Positions 1,332 to 32,575 of a DNA stretch of 38,658 bases are shown here, piece by piece; positions within the stretch are counted from its first letter, which is position 1, and each line of letters begins with the position of its first letter. Source of the DNA: a virus; UHGV virus genome UHGV-0206453. One strand, 5' to 3'. The notes under the pieces were generated by a model. That model had not been told where the DNA came from, did no database searches, and was given only the letters and a program-made list of their open reading frames with translations. The position numbers and the translations under genes are program-made.

Positions 1332-2267
1332 TTATTCTGCGTCAATATCTTCTACGGTTAGTAGAGGGTGTACCTTATCAAGCAATTGGATGAAATCTTC
1401 ATAAGTATCGCTTGCTTGCATGAGTGTTGTTACCCCTGTAAGTCTCTTTTGAAGAAGACCATATCCAGTTCCCTCTGATAGAAACTGATGCATTTTTGCA
1501 CCTGCCTTTTTTGCTTTTGCTCTTTCTTCCTTTAGCGCATTTCTTAGCTCTGGTGCCATGCGGTCATAAGTTATGTTATTCACAAGATGACCAAAGTATT
1601 GCGGTCTCCGCATGTTTGCTTTGAATGGGACTCCTCTGAGTCTACATAACTCCTCAAAGAATTCTGGCGGATATGTGCTTACCCATGGTCGCATTTCTTT
1701 AGCGATGAATTGCTCAAGGAGTTTTGCCAGTTCATCGCGCTCTCGTTCTTTTTGGTATCCAGTCGCTTCATCAACGAGCGCAACGGCGCCAACTCTAGCT
1801 AGAGCTTTATAGAGCGCTTTGGCTTTTGCAGCTGTATTCAAGTGATGCTTTTGTCGTAGGGCTCCATCCCTCTCAGCATCTGTCCATGCCTCGCAAAGCG
1901 CTGGTAGCATAGTAACGTCAATGCCATAAGCGACACCTGCACCTGATGTATTTTTATATACAATTGGTTCTGCTAGCGCTTCTCTTAGTTCATCGGAAAT
2001 ATATGGCTGAAGCTCATTTGCTTGGAGAACATATGGTAATTGACCTGGCTTCCCATTTGGGACCCATCTTGGCATTTTTGAGCCAACAGATACACCGAAT
2101 GTTTCTGCCAATCCATTTGCACCTTGCATTGAAACCACTCTGCGACCATCAGGCAAAACAGCACAAGAAACACCTGTCGCCATTAATCCTGTGTGAGTTG
2201 GCTTTGGAGCTGATCTAACGATTGCTGACATTGCTGCTGCTTTTTGAGCTCGTTTTTTAGTATCCAT
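1332..2267 (-). CDS. hypothetical 311-aa protein in rexAB-equivalent position (candidate superinfection-exclusion/abortive-infection protein; possibly P63C-like)
   Basis: Internal ATG of ORF 1332..2324 preceded by GGGGGA; not RexA/RexB; flanked by own AT-rich upstream region and terminators; family assignment from memory only. Confidence 0.7.
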   Translation of the reverse strand: MDTKKRAQKAAAMSAIVRSAPKPTHTGLMATGVSCAVLPDGRRVVSMQGANGLAETFGVSVGSKMPRWVPNGKPGQLPYVLQANELQPYISDELREALAEPIVYKNTSGAGVAYGIDVTMLPALCEAWTDAERDGALRQKHHLNTAAKAKALYKALARVGAVALVDEATGYQKERERDELAKLLEQFIAKEMRPWVSTYPPEFFEELCRLRGVPFKANMRRPQYFGHLVNNITYDRMAPELRNALKEERAKAKKAGAKMHQFLSEGTGYGLLQKRLTGVTTLMQASDTYEDFIQLLDKVHPLLTVEDIDAE

Positions 2268-2479
2268 AAATCCCCCATATGCTTGGTTATGGTGATGATA
2301 GCTTATTTCAAATAAGCAGGGCAATGATAGCTAAATCATCAATTAGCTACAAAATGCATCATTTTTATTTATCTCATTGATATGTATATATTTATCGATA
2401 AAATATTTTTAGCTATTCTGTGATTAAGCTAAATATCAATGCTAATTAATGCGTTAGCACAATGTGTGGATCACTACCA

Positions 2480-2506
2480 ATAAAAAAGGCCGCACTTCTG
2501 CGGCCT
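2480..2506 (-). terminator. rho-independent terminator immediately after cI
   Basis: Minus-strand GGCCGCA-gaagt-GCGGCC hairpin followed by TTTTTTATT, directly after cI stop. Confidence 0.6.
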
Positions 2507-2510
2507 TTCA

Positions 2511-3227
<717 letters not shown>

Positions 3228-3233
3228 TTAAAT

Positions 3234-3299
3234 CTATCACCGCAAGGGATAAATATCTAACACCGTGCGTGTTGACTATTTTACCTCTAGCGGTGATAA
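3234..3299. promoter_or_regulatory. oR3-oR2-oR1 operators with divergent pRM and pR promoters
   Basis: TATCACCGCAAGGGATA, TAACACCGTGCGTGTTG, TACCTCTAGCGGTGATA; pR -35 TTGACT and -10 GATAAT; GGAGG RBS before cro. Confidence 0.85.
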
Positions 3300-3315
3300 T
3301 AGTTGCATGTACTAA

Positions 3316-3525
<210 letters not shown>

Positions 3526-3532
3526 ATAACCC

Positions 3533-3563
3533 CGCTCTTACACATTCCAGCCCTGAAAAAGGG
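3533..3563 (+). promoter_or_regulatory. nutR (boxA CGCTCTTA, boxB GCCCTGAAAAAGGGC)
   Basis: Canonical lambda nutR boxA/boxB directly after cro stop. Confidence 0.75.
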
Positions 3564-3643
3564 CATCAAATTAAACCACACCTATGGTGTATGCATTTAT
3601 TTGCATACATTCAATCAATTGTTATCTAAGGAAATACTTACAT

Positions 3644-3937
3644 ATGGTTCGTGCAAACAAACGCAACGAGGCTCTACGAATCGAGAGTGCGTTGCTTAAC
3701 AAAATCGCAATGCTTGGAACTGAGAAGACAGCGGAAGCTGTGGGAGTTGATAAGTCGCAGATCAGCAGGTGGAAGAGGGATTGGATTCCAAAGTTCTCAA
3801 TGCTGCTTGCTGTTCTTGAATGGGGCGTCGTCGACGACGATATGGCTCGATTGGCACGACAAGTTGCTTCGATTCTCACCAATAAAAAACGCCCGGCGGC
3901 AACCGAGCGTTCTGATCAAATACAAATGGAATTTTAA
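3644..3937 (+). CDS. cII: cII transcriptional activator
   Basis: Internal ATG of ORF 3584..3937; MVRANKRNEALRIESALLNKIAMLGTEKTAEAVGVDKSQISRWKRDW... matches lambda cII. Confidence 0.95.
   Translation: MVRANKRNEALRIESALLNKIAMLGTEKTAEAVGVDKSQISRWKRDWIPKFSMLLAVLEWGVVDDDMARLARQVASILTNKKRPAATERSDQIQMEF
3652..3665 (-). promoter_or_regulatory. pRE cII-binding motif TTGC-N6-TTGC
   Basis: Plus-strand GCAAACAAACGCAA inside cII codons 3-7 equals minus-strand TTGCGTTTGTTTGC, as at lambda pRE. Confidence 0.55.
3881..3909 (-). terminator. oop-type antisense RNA terminator inside 3' end of cII
   Basis: Minus-strand GC-rich hairpin (CGCTCGGTTGCCGCCGGGCG) followed by TTTTTTATT, as in lambda oop; the oop promoter side has diverged. 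Confidence 0.5.
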
Positions 3938-3959
3938 CAACATCCAACGAGGTAATTAT

Positions 3960-4232
3960 ATGCGAAACAAAGGCTTTAATCCACCTGATACACACAAAGA
4001 AGTTAAGCGTTTGCGCTTCCTTCGTTCCATTGATGAAAGAACTCAAATCTCTTTTGTGAAAGTTGCCAGAACTGAGCTTCTGAAGGCTGAGGCGAGGGCG
4101 TTGCTCCCGTCTCTACCAAAAGAGGAGGGATATACGTTCATTCCAAACGCATTTCTGGAAAAGCTGCTCAAAGAAGACATATCCGTAAGTCAGTTTAACG
4201 ATGTTCTTAAGGTCTTTCGTCAAGGCAGGTAG
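3960..4232 (+). CDS. hypothetical protein (90 aa) between cII and replication initiator
   Basis: Internal ATG of ORF 3651..4232 preceded by GAGG; lambda homology ends just after cII. Confidence 0.55.
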   Translation: MRNKGFNPPDTHKEVKRLRFLRSIDERTQISFVKVARTELLKAEARALLPSLPKEEGYTFIPNAFLEKLLKEDISVSQFNDVLKVFRQGR

Positions 4233-4234
4233 TT

Positions 4235-5182
4235 ATGAGCAATACAGCAAAAATCTACGATTTCAGCGCCGCACACGAGCGCAGGAGCAACAGGATGGAG
4301 AACCAGAAAACTGGTTACATTCCGTTGTACCGGAGCATTCTGAAACAGTCATGGGCGAAAGATGTTTATCTTCGCACCCTGTGGGAAAACCTTCTCCTGA
4401 ATGCCGCCAGAAAGCCATACAAAGCGAATTTCAAAGGTCATGAATGGCATCTGCAACCCGGTCAACTGGTTGTGACAGCAGCTGATTTAGGTCTTCAGTT
4501 ATGCGACAGGCATGGCAAGCCAGCAAGCCGCGATCAGGTTGAGCGGATGCTTCAGGTTTTTGTGAAAGAGGGGATGATCACCATTGATGGAGAGAAGCAA
4601 AAAGGTCGTGTGATCACCATCACAAATTACCATGAATATGCTCAAAAAATGGACAATTCACCCGCACATGAAGCCGCACAAACAACCGCACATGACGCCG
4701 CACATGACGAAGCCAGTAATGGCGCGGCTTTCAGCGTACATGCCGCACATGAAAGCGCACATGAAGCCGCACAAACAACCGCACATCATGAACAAGAAGG
4801 TATTAACAAGAATATAAATAATACCCCCCTACCCCCCAATGGGGGAGGCGATGGGCAGGTTAAACCTGAACGTCGCAAGGCAGAACGAATCGATTACGAA
4901 TCCTTCCTGAACGCCTACAACACCGAAGTCGGTGACAGACTTCCACACGCTGTTGCGGTCAACGAGAAACGCAAACGCCGCCTGAAGAAAATCATCCCGC
5001 AACTGAAAACGCCAAACGTGGACGGTTTCAGAGCGTATGTCAGGGCGTTTGTGCATCAGGCCAAGCCGTTTTACTTCGGAGACAACGACACGGGCTGGAC
5101 GGCAGATTTTGATTACCTGCTGAGGGAAGATTCGTTAACGGGAGTACGGGAAGGGAAGTTTGCAGACAGGGGGATTGCATGA
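4235..5182 (+). CDS. replication initiator, lambda O / P22 gp18 family, with internal origin repeats
   Basis: 315 aa; N-terminus [10 protein letters not shown] resembles lambda O MTNTAKILNF; central repeat-encoded [17 protein letters not shown] segment; followed by helicase gene. Confidence 0.8.
4662..4790. repeat. two clusters of four 12-bp iterons (CCGCACATGAnn) inside the initiator gene; putative replication origin
   Basis: ccgcacatgaag/ccgcacaaacaa/ccgcacatgacg/ccgcacatgacg at about 4662-4709 and a similar set at about 4743-4790, followed by AT-rich stretch and C6/G6 inverted repeat. Confidence 0.7.
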
Positions 5183-6555
5183 GACAGGATATCGAAGCGA
5201 GCGTTATCGGTGGCCTGCTGATTGGTGGATTAACACCAACTGCCAGTGACGTTCTGGCAACGCTTGAGCCGGAAGCGTTTTCAATTCCGCTCTACCGGAA
5301 AGCCTTCGAGGTTATCCGCAAACAGGCGCGAAACAGAAACCTAATCGACGCGCTGATGGTTGCCGAGGCGTGCGGAGAGGAGCATTTCACGTCAATCCTG
5401 ATGACCAGCAAAAACTGCCCGAGTGCCGCAAACCTGAAGGGATATGCCGGAATGGTCGCGGATAACTATCACCGCCGTCTGGTGCTGGAAATCATGGATG
5501 AAATGCGTGAACCAATTCAGAGCGGAACCATCGACGCATCAAGTCAGGCGATGGATGAACTTGTAAAACGGCTCTCAGCCATCAGAAAGCCCCGTGACGA
5601 GGTTAAACCTGTACGGTTAGGGGAAATCATTACTGACTACACTGACACGCTTGACAGGCGTCTGAGGAACGGAGAAGAGTCAGATACCCTGAAGACCGGA
5701 ATCGAAGAACTTGATGCCATCACCGGAGGGATGAACGCGGAAGACCTGGTGATAATCGCTGCTCGTCCTGGTATGGGGAAAACCGAACTGGCGCTGAAGA
5801 TTGCCGAAGGCGTTGCAAGTCGCGTTATTCCTGGTTCTGACGTCCGGCGCGGAGTGTTGATTTTCTCGATGGAAATGAGCGCATTGCAGATTGCAGAGCG
5901 AAGTATTGCCAACGCCGGGAGGATGTCGGTTAGCGTGCTGCGAAATCCTGCATCGATGGATGACGAGGGCTGGGCACGTGTTGCTAACGGCATGAGTCAG
6001 CTTGCAGATTTGGATGTATGGGTAGTCGATGCCTCGCGGTTATCGGTCGAAGAAATACGCTCAATCGCAGAACGGCACAAACAGGAAAATCCAAACCTGT
6101 CACTCATCATGGCGGATTATCTTGGCCTGATTGAGAAGCCGAAAGCAGACCGCAACGACCTCGCAATTGCTCACATCTCAGGAAGCCTTAAGGCGATGGC
6201 GAAAGACCTGAAAACGCCTGTTATCTCCCTGAGTCAGCTTTCGCGCGATGTTGAGAAGCGACCAAACAAACGCCCGACAAACGCAGATTTGCGTGATTCA
6301 GGAAGCATTGAACAGGACGCAGACTCAATCATCATGCTCTATCGGGAAGCAGTATATGACGAGAACAGTAGCGCCGCACCATTTGCTGAAATCATTGTGA
6401 CGAAAAACCGTTTTGGCTCGCTTGGTACGGTTTACCAGCGGTTCTGTAACGGACACTTTGTTGCATGTGACCAGGATGAAGCCAGACAGATTTGCACAGC
6501 ATCAAATGCACCTGCTGCGCGTGGCAGACGATATGCACAAGGGGCTGACGTATGA
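5179..6555 (+). CDS. replicative DNA helicase, DnaB family (P22 gene 12-like)
   Basis: 458 aa; Walker A GMGKTE, DnaB C-terminal motifs; start overlaps initiator stop. Confidence 0.9.
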
Positions 6556-6580
6556 CCATCTACATCACTGAGCTAATAAC

Positions 6581-6611
6581 AGGCCTGCTGGTAATCGCAG
6601 GCCTTTTTATT
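6581..6611 (+). terminator. rho-independent terminator after replication genes
   Basis: AGGCCTGC-tggtaatc-GCAGGCCT hairpin followed by TTTTTATTT. Confidence 0.6.
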
Positions 6612-6657
6612 TGCATCAGAAACAGAGTGAAGTGAGAGCATGAGTAACAGCTAATAT

Positions 6658-6828
6658 ATGTTTTACGCAATCATCGACGATGAAGATGGGCTTGTTTCAG
6701 TAGCGCATGAAAAATACGGTGAAGTTAAGGCGGTATTCCGCACTAAAGAGGATGCTCAGAGAGCTATTGATTTACAAGATGATGAGAACGGTCTCCGCAT
6801 AAGAAAATGTGAAATCGTACAGGCCTAA
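6658..6828 (+). CDS. hypothetical small acidic protein (56 aa)
   Basis: ATG..TAA ORF below track cutoff found by hand translation (MFYAIIDDEDGLVSVAHEKYGEVKAV...); weak RBS. Confidence 0.35.
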   Translation: MFYAIIDDEDGLVSVAHEKYGEVKAVFRTKEDAQRAIDLQDDENGLRIRKCEIVQA

Positions 6829-6853
6829 CACCCCAGCACACTAATGGAGAGAA

Positions 6854-7054
6854 ATGATGACAACGATTGGTGTTCTTTACGACGGGTGGACAAAAGAACG
6901 ATTAAGACGTCATTACAAGATGGCAAAAGTTATCCGCAACAAGCCCTATCGCAATGACTATCGAAAGGTGATGGCAAATAACATGCAGAAGAATATCGAC
7001 AGGATATTCCCGCGCGGAAAGGCTGTGTGGCGCTTACTTAAAAATGAGTGGTGA
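6854..7054 (+). CDS. hypothetical protein (66 aa)
   Basis: ORF track; GGAGAG RBS upstream. Confidence 0.5.
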   Translation: MMTTIGVLYDGWTKERLRRHYKMAKVIRNKPYRNDYRKVMANNMQKNIDRIFPRGKAVWRLLKNEW

Positions 7055-7356
7055 TGGAGAGGAATATGGACGAATCAAGAAAGCAGTTTGAAGAAAGTTG
7101 GTTGCGACGTGGAGGCGAATCTTCAGACCTTATCCGTTACCCTGAAAATCACCATGAAATTGGCAGCGGTAATATTGGTGGTCAATACGTGATTGACGAT
7201 GTTCAAGGCCACTGGCAAACGTGGCAGGCATCGCGAGCAGCTATCGAGATTGAGCTTCCTGAAAGCTTTACCATGCATAGTGGGCGAACCCCATATCTGT
7301 ATGTAAGCGAGGTGCAGAGCGCCATCCGCGCTGCTGGAGTCAAAGTGAAGGAGTGA
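7054..7356 (+). CDS. hypothetical protein (about 100 aa)
   Basis: ATG overlapping upstream TGA (TGATG coupling) within ORF 7048..7356. Confidence 0.5.
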   Translation: MERNMDESRKQFEESWLRRGGESSDLIRYPENHHEIGSGNIGGQYVIDDVQGHWQTWQASRAAIEIELPESFTMHSGRTPYLYVSEVQSAIRAAGVKVKE

Positions 7357-7358
7357 CG

Positions 7359-7769
7359 ATGAAGCAAACAATCTTCCTCCGAACTAAGCAACAACAGCAA
7401 GCCGCAATCAACGCCATCCTCGCAACACCACTCGATAAAGACAAGCCAGTCACCATCCGCATTACTGACTACAAGCGCAACCTTGACCAGAACGCAAAAT
7501 TTCACGCGATGCTGGCGGATATCGCTCGTCAGGTTCAATGGTGCGATAAATGGCTAAAACCAGAACAATGGAAGGTTTTGTTGATCAGCGGTCATGCAGT
7601 GGCAACAAAACAGGAAGCTGATGTTTTGCCCGGCCTTGAAGGCGAATACGTCAACATTCGCGAAAGCAGCGCGCAGATGAGTGTGAAGCGTATGGCAAGT
7701 CTAATTGAGTACACGACAGCATGGGCTATTGGTCAGGGTGTCAGATTTACCGACAGGAGGTACGAATGA
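7359..7769 (+). CDS. ninB: NinB (Orf-family recombination mediator)
   Basis: GGAG RBS then ATG; [21 protein letters not shown]...[22 protein letters not shown] resembles lambda NinB. Confidence 0.85.
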
Positions 7770-7942
7770 GACGACAGCGACGAAGTATCACCGACATAAT
7801 CTGCGAAAACTGCAAATACCTCCCAACGAAACGCTCCAGAAATAAACGCAAGCCAATCCCAAAAGAATCTGACGTAAAAACCTTCAACCACACGGCTCAC
7901 CTGTGGGATATCCGGTGGCTAAGACATCGTGCGAGGAAATGA
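7766..7942 (+). CDS. ninE: NinE
   Basis: Internal ATG of ORF 7721..7942 with AGGAGG RBS; [32 protein letters not shown]... matches lambda NinE. Confidence 0.75.
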
Positions 7943-7944
7943 CA

Positions 7945-8292
7945 ATGGATTATTCACAGTTAAGTGATTTTGAAATTAACAAGAGAGTATTTAAAGCGAT
8001 AGTAGGAGCAAAACCATTAGGTTATCCGCACAACGCAGATGGACGGTCTGTCGGCAATGAATCAAATGGTAATTATCGATGGTACGACTACTGCAATAAT
8101 CCTGAAGATGCAGAGCCGATTATCGTAGAGAACAGAATTGGCATTATTCCAGCGCCAGAAAATGGATTATGGAAGGCAGCGCATAGAAAAGTTGGCAGTG
8201 ATAGTACCCCATATCATATGACTCAAGATGAAAACCCTCTCCGCGCCGCCATGATTGTCTTTCTCATGATGCAGGACGCCAATAATGCTTAG
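7945..8292 (+). CDS. hypothetical nin-region protein (about 115 aa)
   Basis: Internal ATG of ORF 7903..8292, GAGG 8 nt upstream. Confidence 0.55.
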   Translation: MDYSQLSDFEINKRVFKAIVGAKPLGYPHNADGRSVGNESNGNYRWYDYCNNPEDAEPIIVENRIGIIPAPENGLWKAAHRKVGSDSTPYHMTQDENPLRAAMIVFLMMQDANNA

Positions 8293-8461
8293 CCCATCCC
8301 AATCCCTTCAATACCAGAAAGAAAGCGTCGAGCGAGCTTTAACGTGCGCTAACTGCGGTCAGAAGCTGCATGTGCTGGAAGTTCACGTGTGTGAGCACTG
8401 CTGCGCAGAACTGATGAGCGATCCGAATAGCTCAATGTACGAGGAAGAAGACGATGAGTGA
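8285..8461 (+). CDS. ninF: NinF (Cys-rich small protein)
   Basis: Hand-translated 58-aa ORF MLSPSQSLQYQKESVERALTCANCGQKLHVLEVHVCEHCCAELMSDPNSS... matches lambda NinF. Confidence 0.7.
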   Translation: MLSPSQSLQYQKESVERALTCANCGQKLHVLEVHVCEHCCAELMSDPNSSMYEEEDDE

Positions 8462-8666
8462 TTACCTGAAATGGTATCTCTGCCACCGCTGGTTAATTAA
8501 GTTTGCTGTAAAAGACTGGATGACAGCGGATGCCAACAAGCTTAAACAACGAAAGGACTATTACTATGCCAGAATGAAGGAAAACTACTGCTCAATTCGC
8601 ACTCGCATATTTATTAAAAAAGACCTTCAGTCAATTCTTCAATTGCGAGGGAAGGTAAATGGCTAA
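8454..8666 (+). CDS. hypothetical protein (70 aa)
   Basis: ORF track; ATG overlaps ninF 3' end. Confidence 0.45.
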   Translation: MSDYLKWYLCHRWLIKFAVKDWMTADANKLKQRKDYYYARMKENYCSIRTRIFIKKDLQSILQLRGKVNG

Positions 8667-8949
8667 CCTACGCAAAGAAGCGCGCGGCAGAGAATGCCAG
8701 GTACGTATTTACGGTGTATGCAATGGCAATCCTGAAACTACAGTTCTGGCACATTACCGGATGGCTGGAATTTGCGGAACGGGAATGAAACCTGACGACC
8801 TGATCGGCGCATGGGCTTGTAGCGCGTGTCACGATGAAATCGACCGACGCACCCATAATCTCGACAACAAAGACGCCAGACTTTACCACCTCGAAGGCGT
8901 GATCAGGACGCAGGCGATACTGCTGAAGGAGGGGAAGATTAAGTCATGA
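8659..8949 (+). CDS. YbcO-like DUF1364 putative nuclease
   Basis: 96 aa; MANLRKEARGRECQVRIYGVCNGNPETTVLAHYR...ACSACHDEIDRRTH resembles E. coli DLP12 YbcO. Confidence 0.7.
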   Translation: MANLRKEARGRECQVRIYGVCNGNPETTVLAHYRMAGICGTGMKPDDLIGAWACSACHDEIDRRTHNLDNKDARLYHLEGVIRTQAILLKEGKIKS

Positions 8950-9308
8950 ACGAATATCAGTTTGTGCTTCCTTACCCGCCGTCGGTGAATACCTACTGGC
9001 GAAGACGGGGAAGCCAATACTACATCAGCGATAAAGGCCAGAAATACCGAAAAGACGTTCAGCAAATCATCCGCCAACTCAAGTTAGATATTTTCACCAA
9101 ATCACGACTCCGTATCAAAGTCATCGCAGACGTTCCAGACTCCCGCCGCCGCGACCTCGACAACATCCTGAAAGGTTTACTCGACTCCCTTATCCACGCC
9201 GGATTTGCGGAAGACGACGAGCAATTCGATGACATTCGCGTAATTCGTGGTGTGAAAGTACCAGGCGGACGGCTTGGAATAAAAATCACCGAACTGGAGG
9301 ACGTATGA
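8946..9308 (+). CDS. rusA: RusA Holliday-junction resolvase
   Basis: 120 aa; PYPPSVNTYWRRRG...DSRRRDLDNILKGLLDSL motifs typical of RusA. Confidence 0.9.
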   Translation: MNEYQFVLPYPPSVNTYWRRRGSQYYISDKGQKYRKDVQQIIRQLKLDIFTKSRLRIKVIADVPDSRRRDLDNILKGLLDSLIHAGFAEDDEQFDDIRVIRGVKVPGGRLGIKITELEDV

Positions 9309-9493
9309 ACGCCACAATTCAAACGATACCAGAGCTTCTTATCCAGACACGAGGCAATCAGACCGAAGTGGCGAGGATGCTTTCCTGCGCAAGAGGAACA
9401 GTGCTCAAGTACAACCGAGACAGCAAAGGTGAGCGTCACGTAATAGTTAACGGCGTCCTGATGGTCAAACAGGGCAAGAGGGGAAGACCATGA
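9305..9493 (+). CDS. ninH: NinH-like protein
   Basis: 62 aa; ...TIPELLIQTRGNQTEVARMLSCARGTVLKY... resembles lambda NinH. Confidence 0.7.
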   Translation: MNATIQTIPELLIQTRGNQTEVARMLSCARGTVLKYNRDSKGERHVIVNGVLMVKQGKRGRP

Positions 9494-10113
9494 GACTCGA
9501 AAGCGTAGCTAAATTTCACTCGCCAAAAAGCCCGATGATGAGCGACTCACCACGGGCTACGGCTTCTGACTCTCTTTCCGGTACTGATGTGATGGCTGCT
9601 ATGGGGATGGCGCAATCACAAGCCGGATTCGGAATGGCTGCATTCTGTGGTAAGCATGAACTCATCCAGAACGACAAACAAAAGGCTATCAACTATCTGA
9701 TGCAATTTGCACACAAGGTATCGGGGAAATACCGTGGTGTGGCAAAGCTCGAAGGAAATACTAAGGCAAAGGTACTGCAAGTGCTCGCAACATTCGCTTA
9801 TGCGGATTATTGCCGTAGTGCCGCGACGCCTGGCGCAAGATGCAGAGATTGTCACGGTACAGGCCGTGCGGTTGATATAGCAAAAACAGAGCAGTGGGGG
9901 AGAGTTGTTGAGAAAGAATGCGGAAGATGCAAAGGTGTCGGCTATTCAAGGATGCCAGCAAGCGCCGCATATCGCGCTGTGACGATGCTAATCCCAAACC
10001 TTACTCAACCCACCTGGTCACGCACTGTTAAGCCGCTGTATGACGCTCTGGTGGTGCAATGCCACAAAGAAGAGTCAATCGCAGACAACATTTTGAATGC
10101 GGTCACACGTTAG
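9490..10113 (+). CDS. Q: late antiterminator Q (lambda type)
   Basis: 207 aa; near-identical to lambda Q as remembered (MRLESVAKFHSPKSPMMSDSPRATASD...). Confidence 0.95.
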   Translation: MRLESVAKFHSPKSPMMSDSPRATASDSLSGTDVMAAMGMAQSQAGFGMAAFCGKHELIQNDKQKAINYLMQFAHKVSGKYRGVAKLEGNTKAKVLQVLATFAYADYCRSAATPGARCRDCHGTGRAVDIAKTEQWGRVVEKECGRCKGVGYSRMPASAAYRAVTMLIPNLTQPTWSRTVKPLYDALVVQCHKEESIADNILNAVTR

Positions 10114-10155
10114 CGGCATGATTGCCACGGATGGCAACATCTTTACGGCATGATA

Positions 10156-10193
10156 TTGACTTTTTGAATAAAGTTGGGTAAATTTGACCCAAG
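10156..10193 (+). promoter_or_regulatory. late promoter pR' with Q-utilisation region
   Basis: -35 TTGACT, 18-bp spacer, -10 TAAATT, identical to lambda pR' core; homology to lambda breaks a few bases after the start site. Confidence 0.75.
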
Positions 10194-10384
10194 AATGGCA
10201 GATTTATATCCGTTCACATTCTTTCATCTTTTACCCACCTCATCTTTAAGTTCTAAGCGCACTGACATGCGCATCATAAACTCGAGAGCACATAGGAATA
10301 GAGCCTGAGAAATATCGCTTTTGGCGACTTCTCTCGTGGTGATATTTCTATGTCAGCAGGCTCTAATATCTATGTGGTTCGCCT

Positions 10385-10876
10385 ATGTTAAAACGTGAAG
10401 ATGCATTGAGACTTTTTAATTACAATCCAGATACTGGAATTCTTACATGGAAGAATCCACCTCGGTCCTCTAGATTTATCTATGGCGCTGTTGTTGGCTA
10501 TAAAACAAATGGATATCTGCAGGTAAAACTTTATGGAATGCGGCTATATGTCCATAGAATTGCATGGCTGATGGTTTACAATGATTGGCCAACCGATGTG
10601 ATTGACCATATTAATGGTGATAGGTCTGATAACCGGATAGCCAATCTTCGTGTTGTTACTAACACTCAAAACTCATGGAACAGCAAGATGAGGAAAAATA
10701 ATTCATCTGGTGTGAAGGGGGTGACTTTTAATTCTGCTGCAAACAAGTGGGTTGGAAGAATTAGGGTCAATGGTAAAAGGATTCATGTAGGGTGTTTTGA
10801 CGATATCGAGGAGGCTAGAAAGGCAATGGAAAATGCCAGGATAAAATATCATGGTGAATTCTCCAGTATGGGATAG
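10385..10876 (+). CDS. HNH endonuclease with C-terminal AP2-type DNA-binding domain
   Basis: 163 aa; HNH core HRIAWLMVYNDWPTDVIDHINGDRSDNRIANL; AP2-like SGVKGVTFNSAANKWVGRIRVNGKRIHVGCFDDIEEA. Confidence 0.85.
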   Translation: MLKREDALRLFNYNPDTGILTWKNPPRSSRFIYGAVVGYKTNGYLQVKLYGMRLYVHRIAWLMVYNDWPTDVIDHINGDRSDNRIANLRVVTNTQNSWNSKMRKNNSSGVKGVTFNSAANKWVGRIRVNGKRIHVGCFDDIEEARKAMENARIKYHGEFSSMG

Positions 10877-11009
10877 ATGGGTTAATTCGCTCGTTGTGGT
10901 AGTGAGATAAAAAGAGGCGGCGCTTACTACCGATTCCGCCTAGTTGGTCACTTCGACGTATCGTCTGGAACTCCAACCATCGCAGGCTGAGAGGTCTGTA
11001 AAATGCAAT

Positions 11010-11067
11010 CCCGAAACAGTTCGCAGGTAATAGTTAGAGCCTGCATAACGGTTTCGGGATTTTTTAT
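11010..11067 (+). terminator. tR' (6S RNA) terminator
   Basis: CCCGAAAC...GTTTCGGG hairpin followed by ATTTTTTAT, same sequence as lambda tR'. Confidence 0.8.
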
Positions 11068-11472
11068 ATCTGCACAGCAGGTAAGAGCATTGAGTCGATA
11101 ATCGTGAAGAGTCGGCGAGCCTGGTTAGCCAGTGCTCTTTCCGTTGTGCTGAATTAAGCGAATACCGGAAGCAGAACCGGATCACCAAATGCGTACAGGC
11201 GTCATCGCCGCCCAGCAACAGCACAACCCAAACTGAGCCGTAGCCACTGGCTATCCTGAATTCATCAGTGATAGTTACGCTGCGGACTTCTACACATGAC
11301 CTCGTGAAAGCGGGTGGCATGAGGTTGCGCTAACAACCTCCTGCCGTTTTGCCCGTGCATATCGGTCACGAACAAATCTGATTACTAAACACAGTAGCCT
11401 GGATTTGTTCTATCAGTAATCGACCATATTCCTAATTAAATAGAGCAAATCCCCTCAATGAAGGGGTAGAGC

Positions 11473-11676
11473 ATGTACCGTATGGACAAAATCAGAGAAT
11501 GGTTCAGTTACAGCTTCGGAGGACTGACTGCGATGGGTGGCATTCTCTCCCTGAATGACTGGGCTGTCATCATTGGTATTCTTTGTACTGTCGGCACATT
11601 TGGCATCAACTGGTACTACAAGCGCAAAGAGCGCGAGGACAGATTGAATGGCAATGTCACCGGCACTACGAAATAG
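11473..11676 (+). CDS. class II holin with dual-start motif
   Basis: 67 aa; MYRMDK dual Met start, two predicted TM segments, charged C-terminus; immediately precedes endolysin. Confidence 0.7.
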
Positions 11677-11918
11677 CGTAATAGCGGCGATAAGTGGCGG
11701 GGCTATTGCTATAGCATCAGTGTTAATCACTGGCCCAAGTGGTAACGATGGTCTGGAAGGTGTCAGCTACATACCATACAAAGATATTGTTGGTGTATGG
11801 ACTGTATGTCACGGGCATACAGGAAAATAGACTGGCCCCCTGAATCTCCAGACAACCAATATCACTTATTTAAGTGATAGTCTTAATACTAGTTTTTAGA
11901 CTAGTCATTGGAGAGCAG

Positions 11919-12284
11919 ATGATTGATGTCTTAGGACCGGAGAAACGCAGACGGCGTACTACACAGGAAAAGATCGCTATTGTTCAGCAGAGTTTTGAAC
12001 CGGGAATGACAGTCTCCCTTGTTGCCCGGCAACACGGTGTGGCAGCCAGCCAGTTATTTCTCTGGCGCAAGCAATACCAGGAGGGAAGTCTTACTGCTGT
12101 GGCCGCAGGAGAACAGGTCGTTCCTGCCTCTGAACTTGCTGCCGCCATGAAGCAGATTAAAGAACTCCAGCGCCTGCTCGGCAAAAAAACGATGGAAAAT
12201 GAACTCCTTAAAGAAGCCGTTGAATATGGGCGTGCAAAAAAGTGGATAGCGCACGCGCCCTTATTGCCCGGGGATGGGGAGTAA
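11919..12284 (+). CDS. insC: IS2 transposase OrfA (InsC)
   Basis: [53 protein letters not shown]... matches IS2 InsC. Confidence 0.9.
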
Positions 12285-13147
12285 GCTTAGTCAGCCGTTG
12301 TCTCCGGGTGTCGCGTGCGCAGTTGCACGTCATTCTCAGACGAACCGATGACTGGAAAGATGGTCGCCGCAGCCGTCACTCAGATGATACGGATGTGCTT
12401 CTCCGTATACACCATGTTATCGGAGAGCTGCCCACATATGGTTATCGTCGGGTATGGGCGCTGCTTCGCAGACAGGCCGAACTTGATGGTATGCCTGCGA
12501 TCAATGCCAAACGTATTTACCGGATCATGCGCCAGAATGCGCTGTTGCTTGAGCGAAAACCCGCTGTACCGCCATCGAAACGGGCACATACCGGCAGAGT
12601 GGCTGTGAAAGAAAGTAATCAGCGATGGTGCTCTGACGGGTTCGAGTTCCGCTGTGATAACGGAGAAAAACTGCGAGTCACGTTCGCGCTGGACTGCTGT
12701 GACCGTGAGGCACTGCACTGGGCGGTCACTACGGGCGGCTTCAACAGTGAAACAGTACAGGACGTCATGCTGGGAGCGGTGGAACGCCGTTTCGGCAACG
12801 AGCTTCCGGCGTCTCCAGTAGAGTGGCTGACGGATAATGGTTCATGCTACCGGGCTAATGAAACACGGCAGTTTGCCCGGATGTTGGGGCTTGAACCGAA
12901 GAACACGGCGGTGCGGAGTCCGGAGAGTAACGGCATAGCAGAGAGCTTCGTGAAAACGATAAAGCGTGACTACATCAGTGTCATGCCCAAACCAGACGGG
13001 TTAACGGCAGCAAAGAACCTTGCAGAGGCATTCGAGCATTATAACGAATGGCATCCGCATAGTGCACTGGGTTATCGCTCGCCACGGGAATATCTACGGC
13101 AGCAAGCCAGTAATGGGTTAAGTGATAACAGGTGTCTGGAAATATAG
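12242..13147 (+). CDS. insD: IS2 transposase OrfB (InsD), expressed as InsCD via -1 frameshift
   Basis: 301-aa ORF overlapping insC in -1 frame; DDE integrase-type sequence matching IS2 InsD. Confidence 0.9.
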
Positions 13148-13483
13148 GGGCAAATCCAGAAAAGACATCATGCTCGGTAAAACGTATACCAAAGCAGAAT
13201 GCAAAACACTCTTGAATAAAGACCTTGCCACGGTCGCCAGACAAATTAACCCGTACATCAAAGTCGATATACCGGAAACAACGCGCGGCGCTCTTTACTC
13301 ATTCGTTTACAACGTGGGTGCTGGCAATTTCAGAACATCGACGCTTCTTCGCAAAATAAACCAGGGCGATATCAAAGGCGCATGTGATCAGCTACGTCGC
13401 TGGACATACGCTGGCGGTAAGCAATGGAAAGGGCTGATGACTCGCCGTGAGATTGAGCGTGAAGTCTGTTTGTGGGGGCAACA

Positions 13484-13921
13484 ATGAGCAGAGTAACCGC
13501 GATTATCTCCGCTCTGGTTATCTGCATCATCGTCTGTCTGTCATGGGCTGTTAATCATTACCGTGATAACGCCATCGCCTACAAAGAGCAACGTGATAAA
13601 GCCACATCCACAATCGCTGACATGCAGAAGCGTCAACGTGATGTAGCAGAACTTGACGCCAGATACACAAAGGAGCTTGCTGATGCTAACGCGACTATCG
13701 AAAGTCTCCGTGCTGATGTTTCTGCTGGTCGTAAGCGCCTGCAAGTCGCCGCCACCTGTGCAAAGTCAACGACCGGAGCCAGCGGCATGGGCAATGGAGA
13801 AAGCCCAAGACTTACAGCAGATGCTGAACTCAATTATTACCGTCTCCGAAGTGGAATCGACAGGATAACCGCTCAGGTTAACTACCTGCAGGAATACATC
13901 AGGACGCAATGCCTTCGATGA
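13484..13921 (+). CDS. Rz: i-spanin Rz
   Basis: ATG overlaps endolysin stop; [31 protein letters not shown]... matches lambda Rz. Confidence 0.85.
13683..13868 (+). CDS. Rz1: o-spanin Rz1 (lipoprotein) embedded in +1 frame of Rz
   Basis: Within ORF 13653..13868; signal peptide ending in lipobox LVVSAC, proline-rich mature part. Confidence 0.75.
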
Positions 13922-14357
13922 TAGCGATAATTTTACTCATCATCCTTCACATCTGGCTCTGTAGACAGGGTGATGATCACTTCTGGAGTGAATCCAGATT
14001 AAACATCTCATTGCTGATGCTTGATATTGAGCATCTGGCGCGCGGTAAGGGGCTGCGTTGAGATAAGAGCCAGTTCATTACAAAGCCTATCTACGGGTGG
14101 GCTTGATAATGAAACCGGAATTTATTCTGGGCAACCAGTTACGGCAGTACAGCGAAACAACCAAAGCCAGTAAGTGGGGAAATAACACTGGCAGCCACTG
14201 AAAGATGAACCTCCTGCCTTATGGCAAAAAAGATTCTTTGTAGTGGCGGACTGATGGAAAGACATCGGATAGAATAAAACAGTGGCTAGGGTAGCTCCCG
14301 AAAAGCGGAATCGTCACCGCCAGCCACTGAATCTATGACGAACAACTAGACGAGGTT

Positions 14358-25237: not shown

Positions 25238-26533
25238 ATGGCTACTTGGCAAAGAACAAACGGCGGATTGTTGGCTGGTATCGGCGGCGTCAACTCAAAC
25301 GCTCCGAGCGTAAATGACATCGGCAATACGCTTCAGCTTATCAGGCAGAACAATGATATTGAGCGTTCAGGCGCTAACAATGTTGGGCTGACTGCTTTGC
25401 AAGGCCTTTCAGGTATTGCGGTGGTGTTTCAGCAGGAAAAGCAGGCTCAGCGGCAGAAAGAATTTCAGCAGGCATACGCTAATGCTTATGCGTCTGGTGA
25501 TCGCGGTGCTTTGCGTCAGTTGGCTACTCAATATCCAGAACAGATTGAATCCGTTCGTAAAGGCATGGGATTCATTGATGAAGATCAGCGTAATTCTATC
25601 GGCACCTTAGCGGCTGGCGCACGCCTTGCGTCATCGTCTCCAGAAGCAATGCAATCATGGCTGCAAAACAACGCCAAGGAACTGGCGCGCGTCGGTGTTG
25701 ACCCTAACAACGTTGCTCAGATGTATCAGCAGAATCCTTCAGGATTTGGTGAGTTTGTTGATCACCTTGGAATGGCTGCTCTTGGCCCGATTGACTACTT
25801 CAATGTTCAGGACAAGATGGCTGGTCGTGAAATTGACCGAGGCAGGCTGGCAGAGACAATCCGCAGCAATCAGGCTGGAGAAGCACTAACAGCTCGTGGT
25901 CAGGACATCCAGATACGTGGACAGAACATCAGCGCACAGAATGCTGCTCTTTCCCGCGAAATACAAAGAGCAGAATTACAAGAAAAGGCTCTGGACAGAC
26001 AGATAGCCAGAGAAAGCAATCAGTTAAAGCTTGAAGAGCTAAAACAGAAACAGGCAGATGTTCGGCAAAAGGCTGACATAGCCCGCGCTGACAGGCAGGC
26101 CGCCGCTCAGGGTGCAGTTGATACGTTCAGCACCGCGCTTGATTCTCTCAACGAGATAGAGCAAAGCCCCGGCCTTTCAAAAGCAGTAGGAATTCGCTCA
26201 GCGTTTCCGACAGTTCCTGGCTCTGATGCGGCTAACTTTGAAGCAAGGCTCGACACCTTTAAAGCTCAAACATTCCTTCCTATGGTGCAGTCTCTGAAGG
26301 GTATGGGCGCTCTTTCAGATGCTGAGGGTAAAAAATTATCCGATGCGGTTGGTGCCCTAAGCCCCAAAATGAGTGAAAAGGCTTTTCGTGACTCTATCGG
26401 AAAGATTAGAAATCAGCTTGAAAGCAAGTTGAGCACTGTTAAAAAACAGTTTGATTATCAGGAGCCGGTGCAGAATATGCCAGGGCAACAATCTACTACT
26501 GGCAGTAACTTTTCTTCACTATGGGGTGATTAA
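25238..26533 (+). CDS. ejection protein (P22 gp20-like)
   Basis: 431 aa, position and composition. Confidence 0.7.
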   Translation: MATWQRTNGGLLAGIGGVNSNAPSVNDIGNTLQLIRQNNDIERSGANNVGLTALQGLSGIAVVFQQEKQAQRQKEFQQAYANAYASGDRGALRQLATQYPEQIESVRKGMGFIDEDQRNSIGTLAAGARLASSSPEAMQSWLQNNAKELARVGVDPNNVAQMYQQNPSGFGEFVDHLGMAALGPIDYFNVQDKMAGREIDRGRLAETIRSNQAGEALTARGQDIQIRGQNISAQNAALSREIQRAELQEKALDRQIARESNQLKLEELKQKQADVRQKADIARADRQAAAQGAVDTFSTALDSLNEIEQSPGLSKAVGIRSAFPTVPGSDAANFEARLDTFKAQTFLPMVQSLKGMGALSDAEGKKLSDAVGALSPKMSEKAFRDSIGKIRNQLESKLSTVKKQFDYQEPVQNMPGQQSTTGSNFSSLWGD

Positions 26534-28530
26534 TGGCTAAAGCATGGAAAGATGTTATCGCCTCTCCACAGTATCAGGCGTTAGCACCAGAACAAAAAGC
26601 GCAGGCTCAGGAGCAATACTTCAATGAAGTCGTGGCCCCGCAAGCCGGAGAAAATGCAGAGCAGGCTAAGCAAGCTTTCTATGCTGCCTATCCATTGCCA
26701 TCTGTGCAGCCAGTGGAGACACAACAACCAGAAGCACAGCAACAACCACAGCAAAGTGGATTTATGTCTGATCTTGGTGAAGCCGTGAAAGAAACTGGTC
26801 GCGGACTGGTGCAGGCTGGCGTGAACGTGGCAAACATACCTGCATCAGTTGCCGATGCTGTAACAAGCGCGGCGGCATGGGCTGGCGGTAAACTCGGTAT
26901 TGGCGATGGTACATATCAACCAGCGCCACGAGTAACAACGCAGGGATTAGAGCAGGACTTTGGCCTTCAGCAAGGTGCGCTGACTCCACAAACGACAGAG
27001 GGAAGGGTATTTGCTGAAGCATTGCCTTACCTCACTCCTGCTGGCGTTGAGAGAGCGGCGGTACAGGCACCAACACTTGCTGGTCGAATTACTCAGGGGG
27101 CAACTCGCCTTCTAGCAGAAAACGCAGTTGGATCACTTGCTGCAAATAGTGCGAAAGATGATGCGGAAGCACTCGCCACCGATTTAGGCGTTGGTGTACT
27201 TGCTGGCGGTGCTATTAACGCTGCCGGACGTGGATTAGGTGCAGCTTATCGTGGCGTTCGTGGTGCTATCGCGCCAGAAGCGCAGCAGGCTATCAGATTT
27301 GCAGAGCGTGAAGGAGTTCCTCTGCACACCACAGACCTGTTACAACCGACTTCCCGCATCGGGAAAATGGCGCAAACGACAGCAGAAAATATCCCTCTGG
27401 CTGGAACAAGCGGAATGAGAGCAACGCAACAGGAAGCGAGAAGCCAGTTGGTTCAGAGATTTGCTGATAAATTCGGTGAGTATGATCCAGCGGTTGTTAT
27501 TGACAGCCTTAAAGCGAAAACATCAGGAATTCGTCGCGCCGCCGGCAATCGACTGGAGCAGGTTCAGAATGCTATGGCTGGAGTAAACATTCAGCCTGCG
27601 CGAGCAATTCAGCAGATTGATACAGAAATATCTAACCTGCAGAAGCTTGGTAAGGTTGCTGATAACGAGACTATTTCAAAACTTCAGTCATATCGTGATG
27701 AGCTTGTTCGCAATGCTGGCCCTGATGGTCCGGTAAATCTGGATTTGAAGCAATTAAGCGACCTGCGCAGCCAGTTCAGAATGGACGTGAAGGGTGAGCG
27801 ACCAGTGTTACCAAACCGTTCCGATGCCGCCATTCAGCGCGTTTACAAGGCAATGACTGACGATATCAATGGTGCCATTGGTCAGAATCTTGGCAACGAT
27901 ACTCTCCGTAAATATCAGCAGGCCAATGCCGTCTACGCTGACGAAGCGGCGAAACTAAAGAATACCAGGCTGAAGAATGTTCTCATGAAAGGCGACCTGA
28001 CGCCGGAAGTTGTCAACAACATGCTATTCAGCAAGAACAAATCGGAAATTAAGACGCTGTATAACTCAGTTGGTCGTGTTGGCAGGGCGCAAATGCGCAA
28101 TGGCATCATTGGAAAGGCGATGGAGAAATCAGGTGGTTCCCCTGACCAGTTCCTTCGACAGCTTAACATCCTGCAAGACCAGACTGGCATCACATTTAAA
28201 GGTCAGGATGCTGCTTATCTGAAAGGATTGAAAAACTACCTGCAATCCACGCAGCAGGCTGCAAAAGCGGCAGTAACAACACCAACAGGGCAGCAAACCA
28301 TCCCGTTCATTATCGGATATGGGACGGCAATGAACCCGGCGACAACTGGTGCAGCAGTAAGCTACGGACTTCTTACTCGCGCCTATGAGAGCGAACCATT
28401 CAGAAATGCAATGCTCCGAATGGCAAATACCCCACGCGGATCAACATCGTTTGAGAAAGCCATGCAGCAGGCGCAAAAGGCCATTAACGCCCTGACTCAG
28501 GGTGCCAAGTCTGATGCGTTGTCATGGTAA
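26533..28530 (+). CDS. ejection protein (P22 gp16-like)
   Basis: 665 aa, last gene before tailspike as in P22. Confidence 0.7.
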   Translation: MAKAWKDVIASPQYQALAPEQKAQAQEQYFNEVVAPQAGENAEQAKQAFYAAYPLPSVQPVETQQPEAQQQPQQSGFMSDLGEAVKETGRGLVQAGVNVANIPASVADAVTSAAAWAGGKLGIGDGTYQPAPRVTTQGLEQDFGLQQGALTPQTTEGRVFAEALPYLTPAGVERAAVQAPTLAGRITQGATRLLAENAVGSLAANSAKDDAEALATDLGVGVLAGGAINAAGRGLGAAYRGVRGAIAPEAQQAIRFAEREGVPLHTTDLLQPTSRIGKMAQTTAENIPLAGTSGMRATQQEARSQLVQRFADKFGEYDPAVVIDSLKAKTSGIRRAAGNRLEQVQNAMAGVNIQPARAIQQIDTEISNLQKLGKVADNETISKLQSYRDELVRNAGPDGPVNLDLKQLSDLRSQFRMDVKGERPVLPNRSDAAIQRVYKAMTDDINGAIGQNLGNDTLRKYQQANAVYADEAAKLKNTRLKNVLMKGDLTPEVVNNMLFSKNKSEIKTLYNSVGRVGRAQMRNGIIGKAMEKSGGSPDQFLRQLNILQDQTGITFKGQDAAYLKGLKNYLQSTQQAAKAAVTTPTGQQTIPFIIGYGTAMNPATTGAAVSYGLLTRAYESEPFRNAMLRMANTPRGSTSFEKAMQQAQKAINALTQGAKSDALSW

Positions 28531-32320: not shown

Positions 32321-32575
32321 GGGTAAAAATCCGGTGGGTAAAATTATTTTATCCACTTTTTACCCGTCACGGAGTGCGGCTGTCAACGATCTGACGCGAA
32401 CCATTACGAACTGTGAATCTACGGAAGGCTTGATATTCAGGGGATTTTGCGGACTGGTACGGATGGGAGCGAACTGATAAATGGTGTCCCCTGCAGACAT
32501 CTACTTGAAGCAGCAGGGGATTGATTGGAATGGTGTTTTTTAGATGTGAGAAATATTTTACCCGCTATTTTACCC
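32321..32575. other. candidate attP: tRNA-Arg-like 3'-end core flanked by repeated TTTTACCC arm-type motifs
   Basis: Plus TGGTGTCCCCTGCAG (about 32482-32496) is the reverse complement of a tRNA 3' acceptor end plus CCA; five TTTTACCC/GGGTAAAA motifs in both orientations. Confidence 0.55.

Follow-up and report, generated by a model that had tools for sequence, protein, structure and literature searches.

Can an apparently complete temperate phage still release its progeny when an insertion sequence has split its endolysin gene? This question is raised by UHGV-0206453, a virus genome of 38,658 nucleotides (hereafter the window, meaning the whole stretch that was analysed), in which a first-pass annotation had placed an IS2 copy within the SAR endolysin gene. 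Inactivation of phage genes by insertion sequences is a common route of prophage decay, and we found IS2 in a phage endolysin to be a real and ordinary type of event. We consider it highly probable that the window represents a complete P22-like phage in attP form, with its endolysin inactivated by IS2 and the release of progeny blocked.

Results

IS2 splits a phage-21/RrrD-type endolysin gene

Whole-length alignment to IS2A of E. coli K-12, covering both ends as well as orfA and orfB, bore out the annotated complete 1331-bp IS2 in the endolysin gene. The coordinates of the insertion are exact (Table 1), and the two GAAAA copies that flank it match at 5 bp and differ at the sixth base, so that the repeats claimed in the first-pass annotation form a perfect 5-bp duplication. 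That annotation had put the element in codon 60; its location in the endolysin gene stands, and the break is refined to after codon 60, where the first IS2 triplet (11828-11830) supplies a TAG stop. Use of an alternative start at 11654, a Met aligned with Met1 of R21, would give a 165-codon gene with the break after Lys58.

The window contains no uninterrupted endolysin frame. Excision in silico of IS2 and one repeat copy (11648-11827 joined to 13164-13487) restored 504 nt in frame encoding 167 aa, in agreement with the predicted frame of about that length. Alignment of the restored product to phage 21-type endolysins, which had been proposed as a check, gave an end-to-end match: the protein is near-identical to R21 (3HDE) and RrrD (4ZPU), with E ~1e-106, and only after the excision was Pfam Phage_lysozyme (PF00959) matched at 1.9e-45 over profile positions 3-125 of 125. 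A 20-residue stretch of the restored N-terminal helix, which is weakly hydrophobic and Gly/Ala/Ser-rich, aligns with 3HDE and 4ZPU. The restored protein thus shares its Gly/Ala-rich N-terminal helix and Glu/Asp/Thr region with phage 21 R21 (3HDE/3HDF) and DLP12 RrrD (4ZPU), with few substitutions, whereas the window gene is interrupted after the equivalent of R21 Lys58. By these matches the window gene is a pseudogene of the phage-21/RrrD SAR endolysin family (GH24). From the near-identity to R21 we infer that the restored enzyme would be exported by Sec, tethered in the membrane and released on depolarisation.

Table 1 Features of the disrupted lysis cassette, the IS2 element and the integration module. 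A slash marks a junction.
Feature	Coordinates	Strand	Evidence or remark
Late-gene antiterminator Q, lambda Q type, 207 aa	9490..10113	+	PHROG 127 anti-termination protein Q-like, 5.5e-82
Holin, putative class II, 67 aa, intact	11473..11676	+	Pfam Phage_holin_2_3 PF16080 (HP1 family), 4.4e-21, above cut-off
Endolysin 5' fragment, 60 codons	11648..11827	+	SAR helix and Glu-Asp-Thr region
Left target-site duplication GAAAA	11823..11827	.	Sequence
IS2, variant	11828..13158	+	1331 bp, co-oriented with endolysin gene; termini TA... (left) and ...CA (right)
IS2 left imperfect inverted repeat (IRL, orfA-proximal)	11828..11869	+	Gapped alignment, both ends
IS2 orfA (insC), 121 aa	11919..12284	+	NCBIfam and Pfam HTH_Tnp_1
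A6G slippery heptamer AAAAAAG	12236..12242	+	Programmed -1 frameshift to OrfAB transposase
IS2 orfB (insD), 301 aa	12242..13147	+	NCBIfam; Pfam rve, rve_3, HTH_21
IS2 right imperfect inverted repeat (IRR), terminus ...TCCA	13117..13158	+	End alignment
Right target-site duplication GAAAA	13159..13163	.	Sequence
Endolysin 3' fragment, 107 codons and stop	13164..13487	+	Without SAR helix, without catalytic residues
Occupied left junction			CAGGAAAA/TAGACTGG (GGAAAA/TAGACT)
Occupied right junction			AAATCCA/GAAAAGAC (ATCCA/GAAAAG)
Empty (IS-free) site			CAGGAAAA/GACATC
Rz i-spanin, 145 aa, intact	13484..13921	+	Pfam Phage_lysis 5e-37; start overlaps endolysin stop
Rz1 o-spanin lipoprotein, 61 aa, intact	13683..13868	+	Pfam Rz1 2.2e-20; inside Rz, other frame
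IntS-type integrase, 385 aa	31163..32320	-	PHROG 1 integrase
attP core ATGGTGTCCCCTGCAG	32481..32496	-	Reverse complement of 16-nt argW/KplE1 core
TorI-like excisionase (xis), 66 aa	32570..32770	-	Translation; relatives annotate torI here

The element itself appears structurally intact in all its sequence features. Its termini (TAGACTGG... on the left and ...GCAAATCCA on the right) lie in imperfect repeats of ~42 bp. The product of orfA scored 276 bits against the NCBIfam IS2 TnpA repressor profile NF006928 (curated cut-off 229), and that of orfB, which carries an integrase-core (DDE) domain (Pfam rve, rve_3), scored 710 bits against the IS2 TnpB transposase profile NF006918 (curated cut-off 597). 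The two frames overlap in the -1 register at the A6G slippery site; this frameshift motif and the TA.../...CA end features are as described for IS2 (PMC3219604). With the K-12 element (IS2A in yaiX) the window copy shares its 1331 bp, the first 40 and last 26 end bases, the orfA/orfB layout, the A6G site, the 5-bp target duplication and its place in the IS2 group of the IS3 family. The two differ by 58 substitutions in an ungapped alignment over 1331 bp, and InsD is identical at 292 of 302 positions. At 95.6%, the nucleotide identity is borderline for the same IS, and on this comparison the window copy is a distinct, widespread IS2 variant. PGAP labels it merely as 'IS3 family transposase', and copies 100% identical to it are carried by plasmids of E. 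coli and Salmonella and by the rrrD gene of E. coli CV839-06.

The insertion is reproduced in independent assemblies

IS2 is a multicopy repeat (~24,000 copies across 5426 E. coli genomes) that could have been collapsed into a phage contig during assembly, and assemblers do break at it: two ENA scaffolds of ERZ28603820 each end 53 nt inside one IS2 end. Against a chimera, the Logan contig SRR8653191_1864 (2222 bp) corresponds to window positions 11346-13567 at 100% identity and crosses the whole element with both junctions. The element has its full 1331 bp, its duplication is exact, its excision restores the reading frame perfectly, and eight similar insertions with perfect 5-bp duplications occur in finished E. 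coli genomes. Since independent public assemblies repeat both junctions at 100% identity, we regard an assembly artefact as extremely improbable, and these sequence comparisons essentially refute it.

Only three contigs (L012, L014 and L035) were counted as carrying the window's insertion; L013, L015 and L036-L039, which hold exact 60-aa or 105-aa fragments, were rejected as further insertions because they are partial genes at contig ends. An exact 33-mer across the left junction gave 0 matches in each of the viral, genome and metagenome contig collections. BLAST searches of PLSDB plasmids and GenBank phages with the cassette returned IS2 alone or the intact cassette and no record with the insertion, and a search of the literature on IS2 with endolysin or prophage found nothing relevant.

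Holin and spanin genes are intact

The holin, Rz and Rz1 are all full length and match their Pfam families, which agrees with the earlier description of intact holin and spanin genes. Against the phage P21 holin S family (PF04971) the holin reached 0.001 and 19.5 bits, under the cut-off of 26, so that on profile scores it falls outside the S21 pinholin family and within the HP1 holin family instead. In this partner holin the cassette differs from that of phage 21. Two membrane helices are predicted in the holin, and its start may be dual, at Met1/Met4 (MYRMDK...), a motif that we take to resemble the MKSMDK of S21; the holin gene is paired with that of a SAR endolysin. An intact version of the same cassette occurs in P22-like phages, e.g. 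Emek, at 97% identity.

The Q gene is relevant to how the lysis cassette is expressed. No intrinsic terminator was predicted on the + strand between 10100 and 14100, a range that covers IS2; judged from sequence, the element may exert Rho-dependent polarity on the late genes.

The window is a unit-length phage genome in attP configuration

All 20 core early and structural phage genes that were checked are full length against PHROG profiles, and the P22-type virion set is present at full profile length (terminase, portal, scaffold, coat, gp4/10/26 and ejection proteins), as expected of what had been called an otherwise complete phage. The tailspike carries a Head_binding domain. The exact IntS protein adjoins argW in many E. 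coli chromosomes, and the att core corresponds to the published 16-nt argW/KplE1 core CTGCAGGGGACACCAT (PMC2951348). In the window this core has phage DNA on both sides, with int on one and the torI-like xis on the other; E. coli chromosomes instead continue at this place into the remainder of argW and into host genes. In a related phage, the window's final base and its first base are directly joined, with no gap or mismatch. The abutting ends and the int/xis-flanked attP together indicate that the window is one unit-length circular phage genome in attP configuration and not an integrated prophage, and by its gene content the phage is a P22-like temperate phage of E. coli integrating at argW.

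The P22-type structural genes, IntS/TorI and the 16-nt core are shared with P22-like phages that carry the KplE1/HK620/Sf6/CUS-3 argW recombination module, and blocks at 94-98% nucleotide identity with Kapi1, CUS-3, Sf6 and HK97-like early regions. As a whole the mosaic is absent from GenBank phages, the best single record covering at most 60% of either part searched, and the window differs from P22-like argW phages in its unusual tailspike and its IS2. With IS2 the genome measures 38.7 kb, and its relatives 38.6-40.2 kb.

Found in metagenome-derived assemblies, the circular attP form indicates that this phage DNA either undergoes excision at the least or occurs as tandem copies. The phage also appears to be integrated in the sample of ENA scaffold_119, as arithmetic on lengths suggests: this scaffold is 64.4 kb long, but the phage sequence that it can contain up to the att core is only ~18 kb. 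Searches for its host flank through the integrase, a P63C-domain protein and a 156-aa early protein matched only large chromosomes, these proteins being too common. Contigs from two samples end precisely on the final base of the att core.

IS2 recurs in rrrD-type genes

We resolved eight further IS2 insertions in E. coli RrrD-type endolysin genes to the nucleotide, and all eight have perfect 5-bp duplications. IS2-disrupted rrrD pseudogenes in RefSeq (for example those of CM2, GPEC1405, Eco_23-3571, CV839-06, PK8566 and 13C1065T) share with the window the IS, the gene family and the perfect duplications, and E. coli CM2 also matches the window in holin type and phage type. They differ in lying in integrated, often decayed prophages (DLP12- and Rac-like), whereas the window is an apparently complete circular genome. 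Four of the nine independent events, the window included, fall at gene positions 171 (in reverse orientation), 177, 179 and 180, and two others share the identical position 346 with different IS2 variants in different prophages. Three of the non-window events lie at most 9 bp away from the site in the window, and none of the eight is at the same nucleotide. To our knowledge, IS2 has no defined target consensus. Four events within 10 bp and one site hit twice suggest a local target preference. A bias of IS2 towards co-orientation with the gene was rejected as an artefact of the query, since the reversed construct was found in as many genomes (55 vs 47).

Across the collection, IS2 lies in or beside an rrrD-type gene in ~100 of 5426 genomes, against ~3 in-gene copies expected by arithmetic under a uniform model, although events were sampled with a bias to sites near the query junction and the genomes are phylogenetically non-independent. 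This excess and the clusters at 171-180 (n = 4) and 346 (n = 2) speak for insertion that is not neutral, through an IS2 target preference, host selection for lysis-dead prophages, or both. Besides the sampling bias, the intolerance of most of the chromosome to insertions exaggerates any apparent enrichment in those prophage genes that are dispensable, and inspection by eye found no motif common to the two clustered sites. We hold the non-neutral explanation only tentatively, at somewhat below even chances. It is doubtful that IS2 prefers codons 56-60 (and ~115) of phage-21/RrrD-type endolysin genes as a recurrent lysis off-switch, with the phage as an IS2 vehicle.

Discussion

We propose that IS2 entered the endolysin gene by IS3-family copy-out/paste-in, which would have left the 5-bp duplication. 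The 60-aa product would retain the membrane helix and the Glu/Asp/Thr stretch and lack roughly two-thirds of the lysozyme fold, and the 3' fragment would have neither export signal nor catalytic residues, so that no muralytic activity would be made. With int, xis and attP intact, an induced phage should still excise and replicate. Q-modified RNA polymerase transcribes through terminators and none is predicted on the + strand in IS2, so the downstream late operon is probably still expressed. The holin would still kill the cell; with the murein intact, the spanins could not act and virions would be held in unlysed cells. Release would then depend on one of three routes: an endolysin provided in trans, recombination that draws on one of the common resident rrrD alleles, or the infrequent deletion of IS2 by way of its 5-bp repeats. 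Of 5426 complete E. coli genomes, 3949 (73%) carry RrrD-type genes, 90-99% identical, that might serve such recombination. Loss of endolysin activity, and with it a lysis defect unless complemented, is thus a plausible reading of the sequence.

The first-pass annotation had further predicted that the insertion would trap the phage as a prophage. This was not borne out, as the window has the attP arrangement of an excised phage and is not integrated. An endolysin defect leaves excision, replication and host killing unblocked and stops only the release of progeny. If the sample was a virus-particle preparation, release despite the defect would be implied.

The phage might instead be lysis-proficient in its natural host, where the endolysin of a co-resident prophage, recombination with a resident rrrD allele or a subpopulation with the empty site would mask the defect, and IS2-bearing genomes would be packaged and spread with their IS2. 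The unit-length attP-form circle is compatible with this, as are the abundance of closely related RrrD-type genes and a genome length that fits that of the relatives even with IS2. The contigs that end with the att core are likewise as expected where attL- and attP-type continuations coexist. Resident rrrD genes are, however, under their own late promoters and antiterminators (e.g. quuD), so that cross-activation by the lambda-type Q of this phage is not expected; intracellular circles or a tandem double lysogen would also give an attP junction without release, and the insertion is absent from GenBank phage records. We therefore consider a masked defect unlikely. The second of these sources, two tandem prophages at argW in place of excised or packaged DNA, would by itself account for the circular assembly, since tandem lysogens contain an internal attP junction, and the inferred integration in the sample of scaffold_119 is in keeping with it. 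Spontaneous induction of prophages with intact int and xis is the commoner source of attP junctions, and we rate the tandem arrangement slightly less probable still. A complete, excising phage that is blocked in release remains our preferred reading.

On this preferred reading, the genome would score as 'complete' in viral-genome tools and yet probably cannot release progeny, a caveat for metagenomic phage catalogues. It would also provide a natural, clean endolysin-null (as predicted) of a pinholin-like/SAR-type cassette with holin and spanins intact. The clustered independent hits in one gene hint at an IS2 target preference. Should the doubtful off-switch hypothesis prove true, IS2 would act as a recurrent lysis off-switch in lambdoid and P22-like E. 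coli prophages, and an excising phage, possibly packaged with help, would move IS2 between hosts.

A complete IS2 element interrupts the endolysin gene

We observed that the endolysin gene is split by an IS2 element, with no alternative reading frame that restores it; the 5′ fragment is translated in the window only as far as a TAG formed by IS2 bases 1-3. The element aligns with the reference K-12 IS2A gap-free over its whole length at 95.6% identity (58 substitutions), and the two are identical in their first 40 and last 26 bases. Its proteins contain HTH_Tnp_1 and rve/rve_3 domains and exceed the curated cut-offs of the NCBIfam models 'IS2 repressor TnpA' (276 bits vs 229) and 'IS2 transposase TnpB' (710 bits vs 597). 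These features agree with published IS2, which has imperfect inverted repeats, an A6G frameshift window, a left end TA and a right end CA (PMC3219604). The first-pass annotation had thus correctly recognised a complete 1331-bp IS2 with insC/insD and exact GAAAA direct repeats; the sixth base is not shared between the two flanks. Since E. coli and Salmonella enterica plasmids carry copies that match it at 100% and identity to K-12 IS2 is only 95.6%, a K-12 laboratory host was not the source. PGAP gives this IS2 variant a generic label only.

In-silico excision of IS2 and one repeat restored the roughly 167-aa frame that had been proposed. The restored protein matches Pfam Phage_lysozyme (1.9e-45) and aligns end to end with the phage 21 endolysin R21 (3HDE) and DLP12 RrrD (4ZPU) at E ~1e-106; both differ from it by few substitutions and share its Gly/Ala-rich N-terminal helix. 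Since this alignment begins at residue 3, the ATG at 11654 may be the true start, in which case the gene would have 165 codons and the break would follow the equivalent of R21 Lys58. Holin, Rz and Rz1 match Pfam families and are intact, as annotated. The holin is an HP1-family member and does not belong to the phage 21 S family, for which its Pfam score is under the cut-off. The Salmonella P22-like phage SEN22 (KT630648 / NC_028696) has an annotated transposon or frameshifted transposase within the same holin-lysin-Rz region.

Coordinates of the interrupted lysis region, the integration module and other features in the window.
Feature	Position	Strand	Details
HNH/AP2-domain endonuclease	10385-10876	+	163 aa
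Holin	11473-11676		HP1 holin family; intact
Restored endolysin	11648-11827 + 13164-13487		504 nt joined, in frame, 167 aa
GAAAA target duplication	11823-11827 + 13159-13163		directly abuts IS2 on both sides
IS2	11828-13158		1331 bp; starts TAGACTGGCCCCCTGAATCTCC, finishes GGGGCAAATCCA; from reading 11200-14200
IS2 orfA	11919-12284		121 aa; overlaps orfB
AAAAAAG slippery site	12236		within IS2
IS2 orfB	12242-13147		301 aa; overlaps orfA
Rz	13484-13921		intact
Rz1	13683-13868		embedded in Rz; intact
gp16-like ejection protein	26533-28530	+	transglycosylase-like segment, residues 163-384
Tailspike	28721-31099	+	792 aa
Integrase	31163-32320	-	followed by att core
att core	32481-32496		ATGGTGTCCCCTGCAG
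TorI-like excisionase	32570-32770		within phage DNA beyond att core
argW-like 16-mer	32790-32805		GGAATCGAACCTGCAA

Misassembly is contradicted by the perfect duplication and exact frame restoration, a signature of transposition, and by independent assemblies. A Logan contig of run SRR8653191 encodes precisely the 60-aa truncated product and is 100% identical to 11346-13567, spanning IS2 and both junctions, which argues against the assembly chimera that the first-pass annotation had considered. In a further assembly (ENA ERZ28603820, LIAN20-2_SAMN11031388), scaffold_119 matches 1648-11880 at 100% and ends 53 nt into the left end of IS2, and scaffold_329 begins 53 nt inside its right end (100% over the 981 nt compared). 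Six other contigs matched in these look-ups (L013, L015, L036-L039) hold only partial genes at contig ends and are not counted as support.

An apparently complete phage genome in attP form carries the insertion

The claim of an otherwise complete phage holds to the extent that 20 core genes align with PHROG families over essentially the whole profile. These comprise a cI-type repressor, O, a P/DnaB-like helicase and Q; small and large terminase, portal, scaffold and coat; and adaptor, head closure, needle, four ejection or head proteins, tailspike and integrase. P22-like/lambdoid phages, including Kapi1, HK97, CUS-3 and Sf6, match in blocks at 94-98%, and in the similarity search no single record covered more than 60% of either of the two parts used as queries.

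In the tailspike, a P22-type head-binding domain is joined by Gp63_3rd_G7C and G7C_GBD (phage G7C gp63.1 type) and a faint SGNH/GDSL esterase match; the exact protein occurs on only two contigs in a 153-billion-gene index. The HNH/AP2 gene lies in the late-operon leader between Q and holin and looks like a mobile homing endonuclease. A similar gene occupies this position in another prophage; among relatives sharing this lysis cassette, the closest is E. coli CM2, which has tRNA-Asn and tRNA-Thr genes there instead. Apart from the endolysin, the only wall-degrading activity predicted for this genome is the transglycosylase-like segment of the gp16-like protein, a virion protein that should not be able to stand in for the endolysin.

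The last and first 400 bases of the window, when joined, form one contiguous piece in 62 phage records, with no gap or mismatch for 60 bases each side of the join. In reverse complement, the att core equals the 16-nt argW core reported for KplE1, HK620, Sf6 and CUS-3 (PMC2951348). On E. coli chromosomes, this integrase arm and its core run on into the rest of argW, then yfdC, mlaA and fadL. Since the window contains no tRNA gene, has seamless ends, carries phage DNA on both sides of the core and departs from the chromosomal continuation, it is not an integrated prophage but a single circular permutation of unit length, in attP form. The attP junction could derive from excised circles, concatemers or virion DNA, or a tandem double lysogen.

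In another run, SRR28856024, a Logan contig matches 26221-32496 at 100% and stops at the last core base, where scaffold_329 also ends, judging from its length. Both ends are compatible with mixed attL-type and attP-type continuations and with integrated and excised (or tandem) copies coexisting in these two public samples. Because scaffold_119 is 64.4 kb long and IS2 and the core are only ~18 kb of phage DNA apart, we infer that the phage is also integrated in that sample. The 16-mer just upstream of the torI-like xis, 294 bp past the core, has the same sequence as the argW segment that comes after the core in the chromosome; it could be left over from a longer tRNA match in an ancestor, or a coincidence.

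IS2 recurrently interrupts rrrD-type genes

IS2 and the phage 21/RrrD endolysin are textbook entities, and RefSeq routinely annotates IS-disrupted rrrD pseudogenes. Among 5426 complete E. coli genomes, an IS2-family element lies in or beside an rrrD-type gene in co-orientation in 47 cases and in opposite orientation in 55 (≥80% of the 1840-nt query covered), with an exact in-gene span in about half of the matches listed. Eight of these insertions were resolved to the nucleotide, all with perfect 5-bp duplications.

IS2 insertions in rrrD-type genes, as the nucleotide of the restored 504-nt gene after which IS2 lies.
Genome	After nt	Duplication	Remarks
CM2	99	GTAAC	phage and holin type as window; IS 99.8% identical to window IS
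13C1065T	171	GGCAT	reverse orientation
Eco_23-3571	177	CCGGA	canonical IS2
GPEC1405	179	GGAAA	
Window	180	GAAAA	
LD39-1	about 254	CCAGA	
2EC1	about 296	CAACG	
CV839-06	346	CAATT	IS 100% identical to window IS
PK8566	346	CAATT	canonical IS2; prophage differs from CV839-06

Four independent events, the window included, fall within 10 bp (nt 171-180; window 11818-11827), and two events with different IS2 variants in different prophages share nt 346 (342-346; window 13325-13329), which points to a local target preference. A crude uniform expectation from ~24,000 IS2 copies and 3 Mb of rrrD-type sequence in 28 Gb is ~3 in-gene copies vs roughly 50 observed, in a sample that favoured the query junction and genomes that are not independent. 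Since dispensable prophage genes also tolerate insertions, unlike most of the chromosome, this comparison is no more than suggestive.

The literature search found no paper on an endolysin gene interrupted by IS2, searches of GenBank phages and PLSDB gave no record that carries the insertion seen here, and the exact junction is absent from three large contig collections. The window insertion is a further case of a known event type, mildly unusual only in that its carrier is an apparently complete circular phage genome and that independent insertions cluster.

Predicted consequences for lysis

By analogy with GH24 lysozymes and R21, the 60-aa fragment would retain the membrane helix and catalytic Glu/Asp/Thr stretch without most of the fold, and the 3′ fragment would have neither helix nor catalytic residues. 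Since both would be incomplete, murein hydrolase would not be made, and a lysis defect is plausible from the sequence. The Q of this phage is of the lambda type, and polymerase modified by such a Q ignores terminators; prediction on the + strand also gave no intrinsic terminator-like site at 10100-14100. Transcription of the late operon beyond IS2 therefore probably continues. The first-pass interpretation holds for the insertion, duplication, frame restoration and intact holin and spanins. Trapping as a prophage is not supported, since the window is in attP form and excision and replication should proceed after induction.

Instead, the holin would depolarise the membrane and kill the cell, and virions would stay inside because spanins cannot fuse the membranes while the wall is intact. 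Induction would thereby become non-productive host death. IS2 transposes by copy-out/paste-in (PMC3219604), so the donor copy stays in place, and reversion would depend either on slippage between the two copies of the 5-bp repeat or on recombination with a resident rrrD-type gene, present in 3949 of the 5426 complete E. coli genomes.
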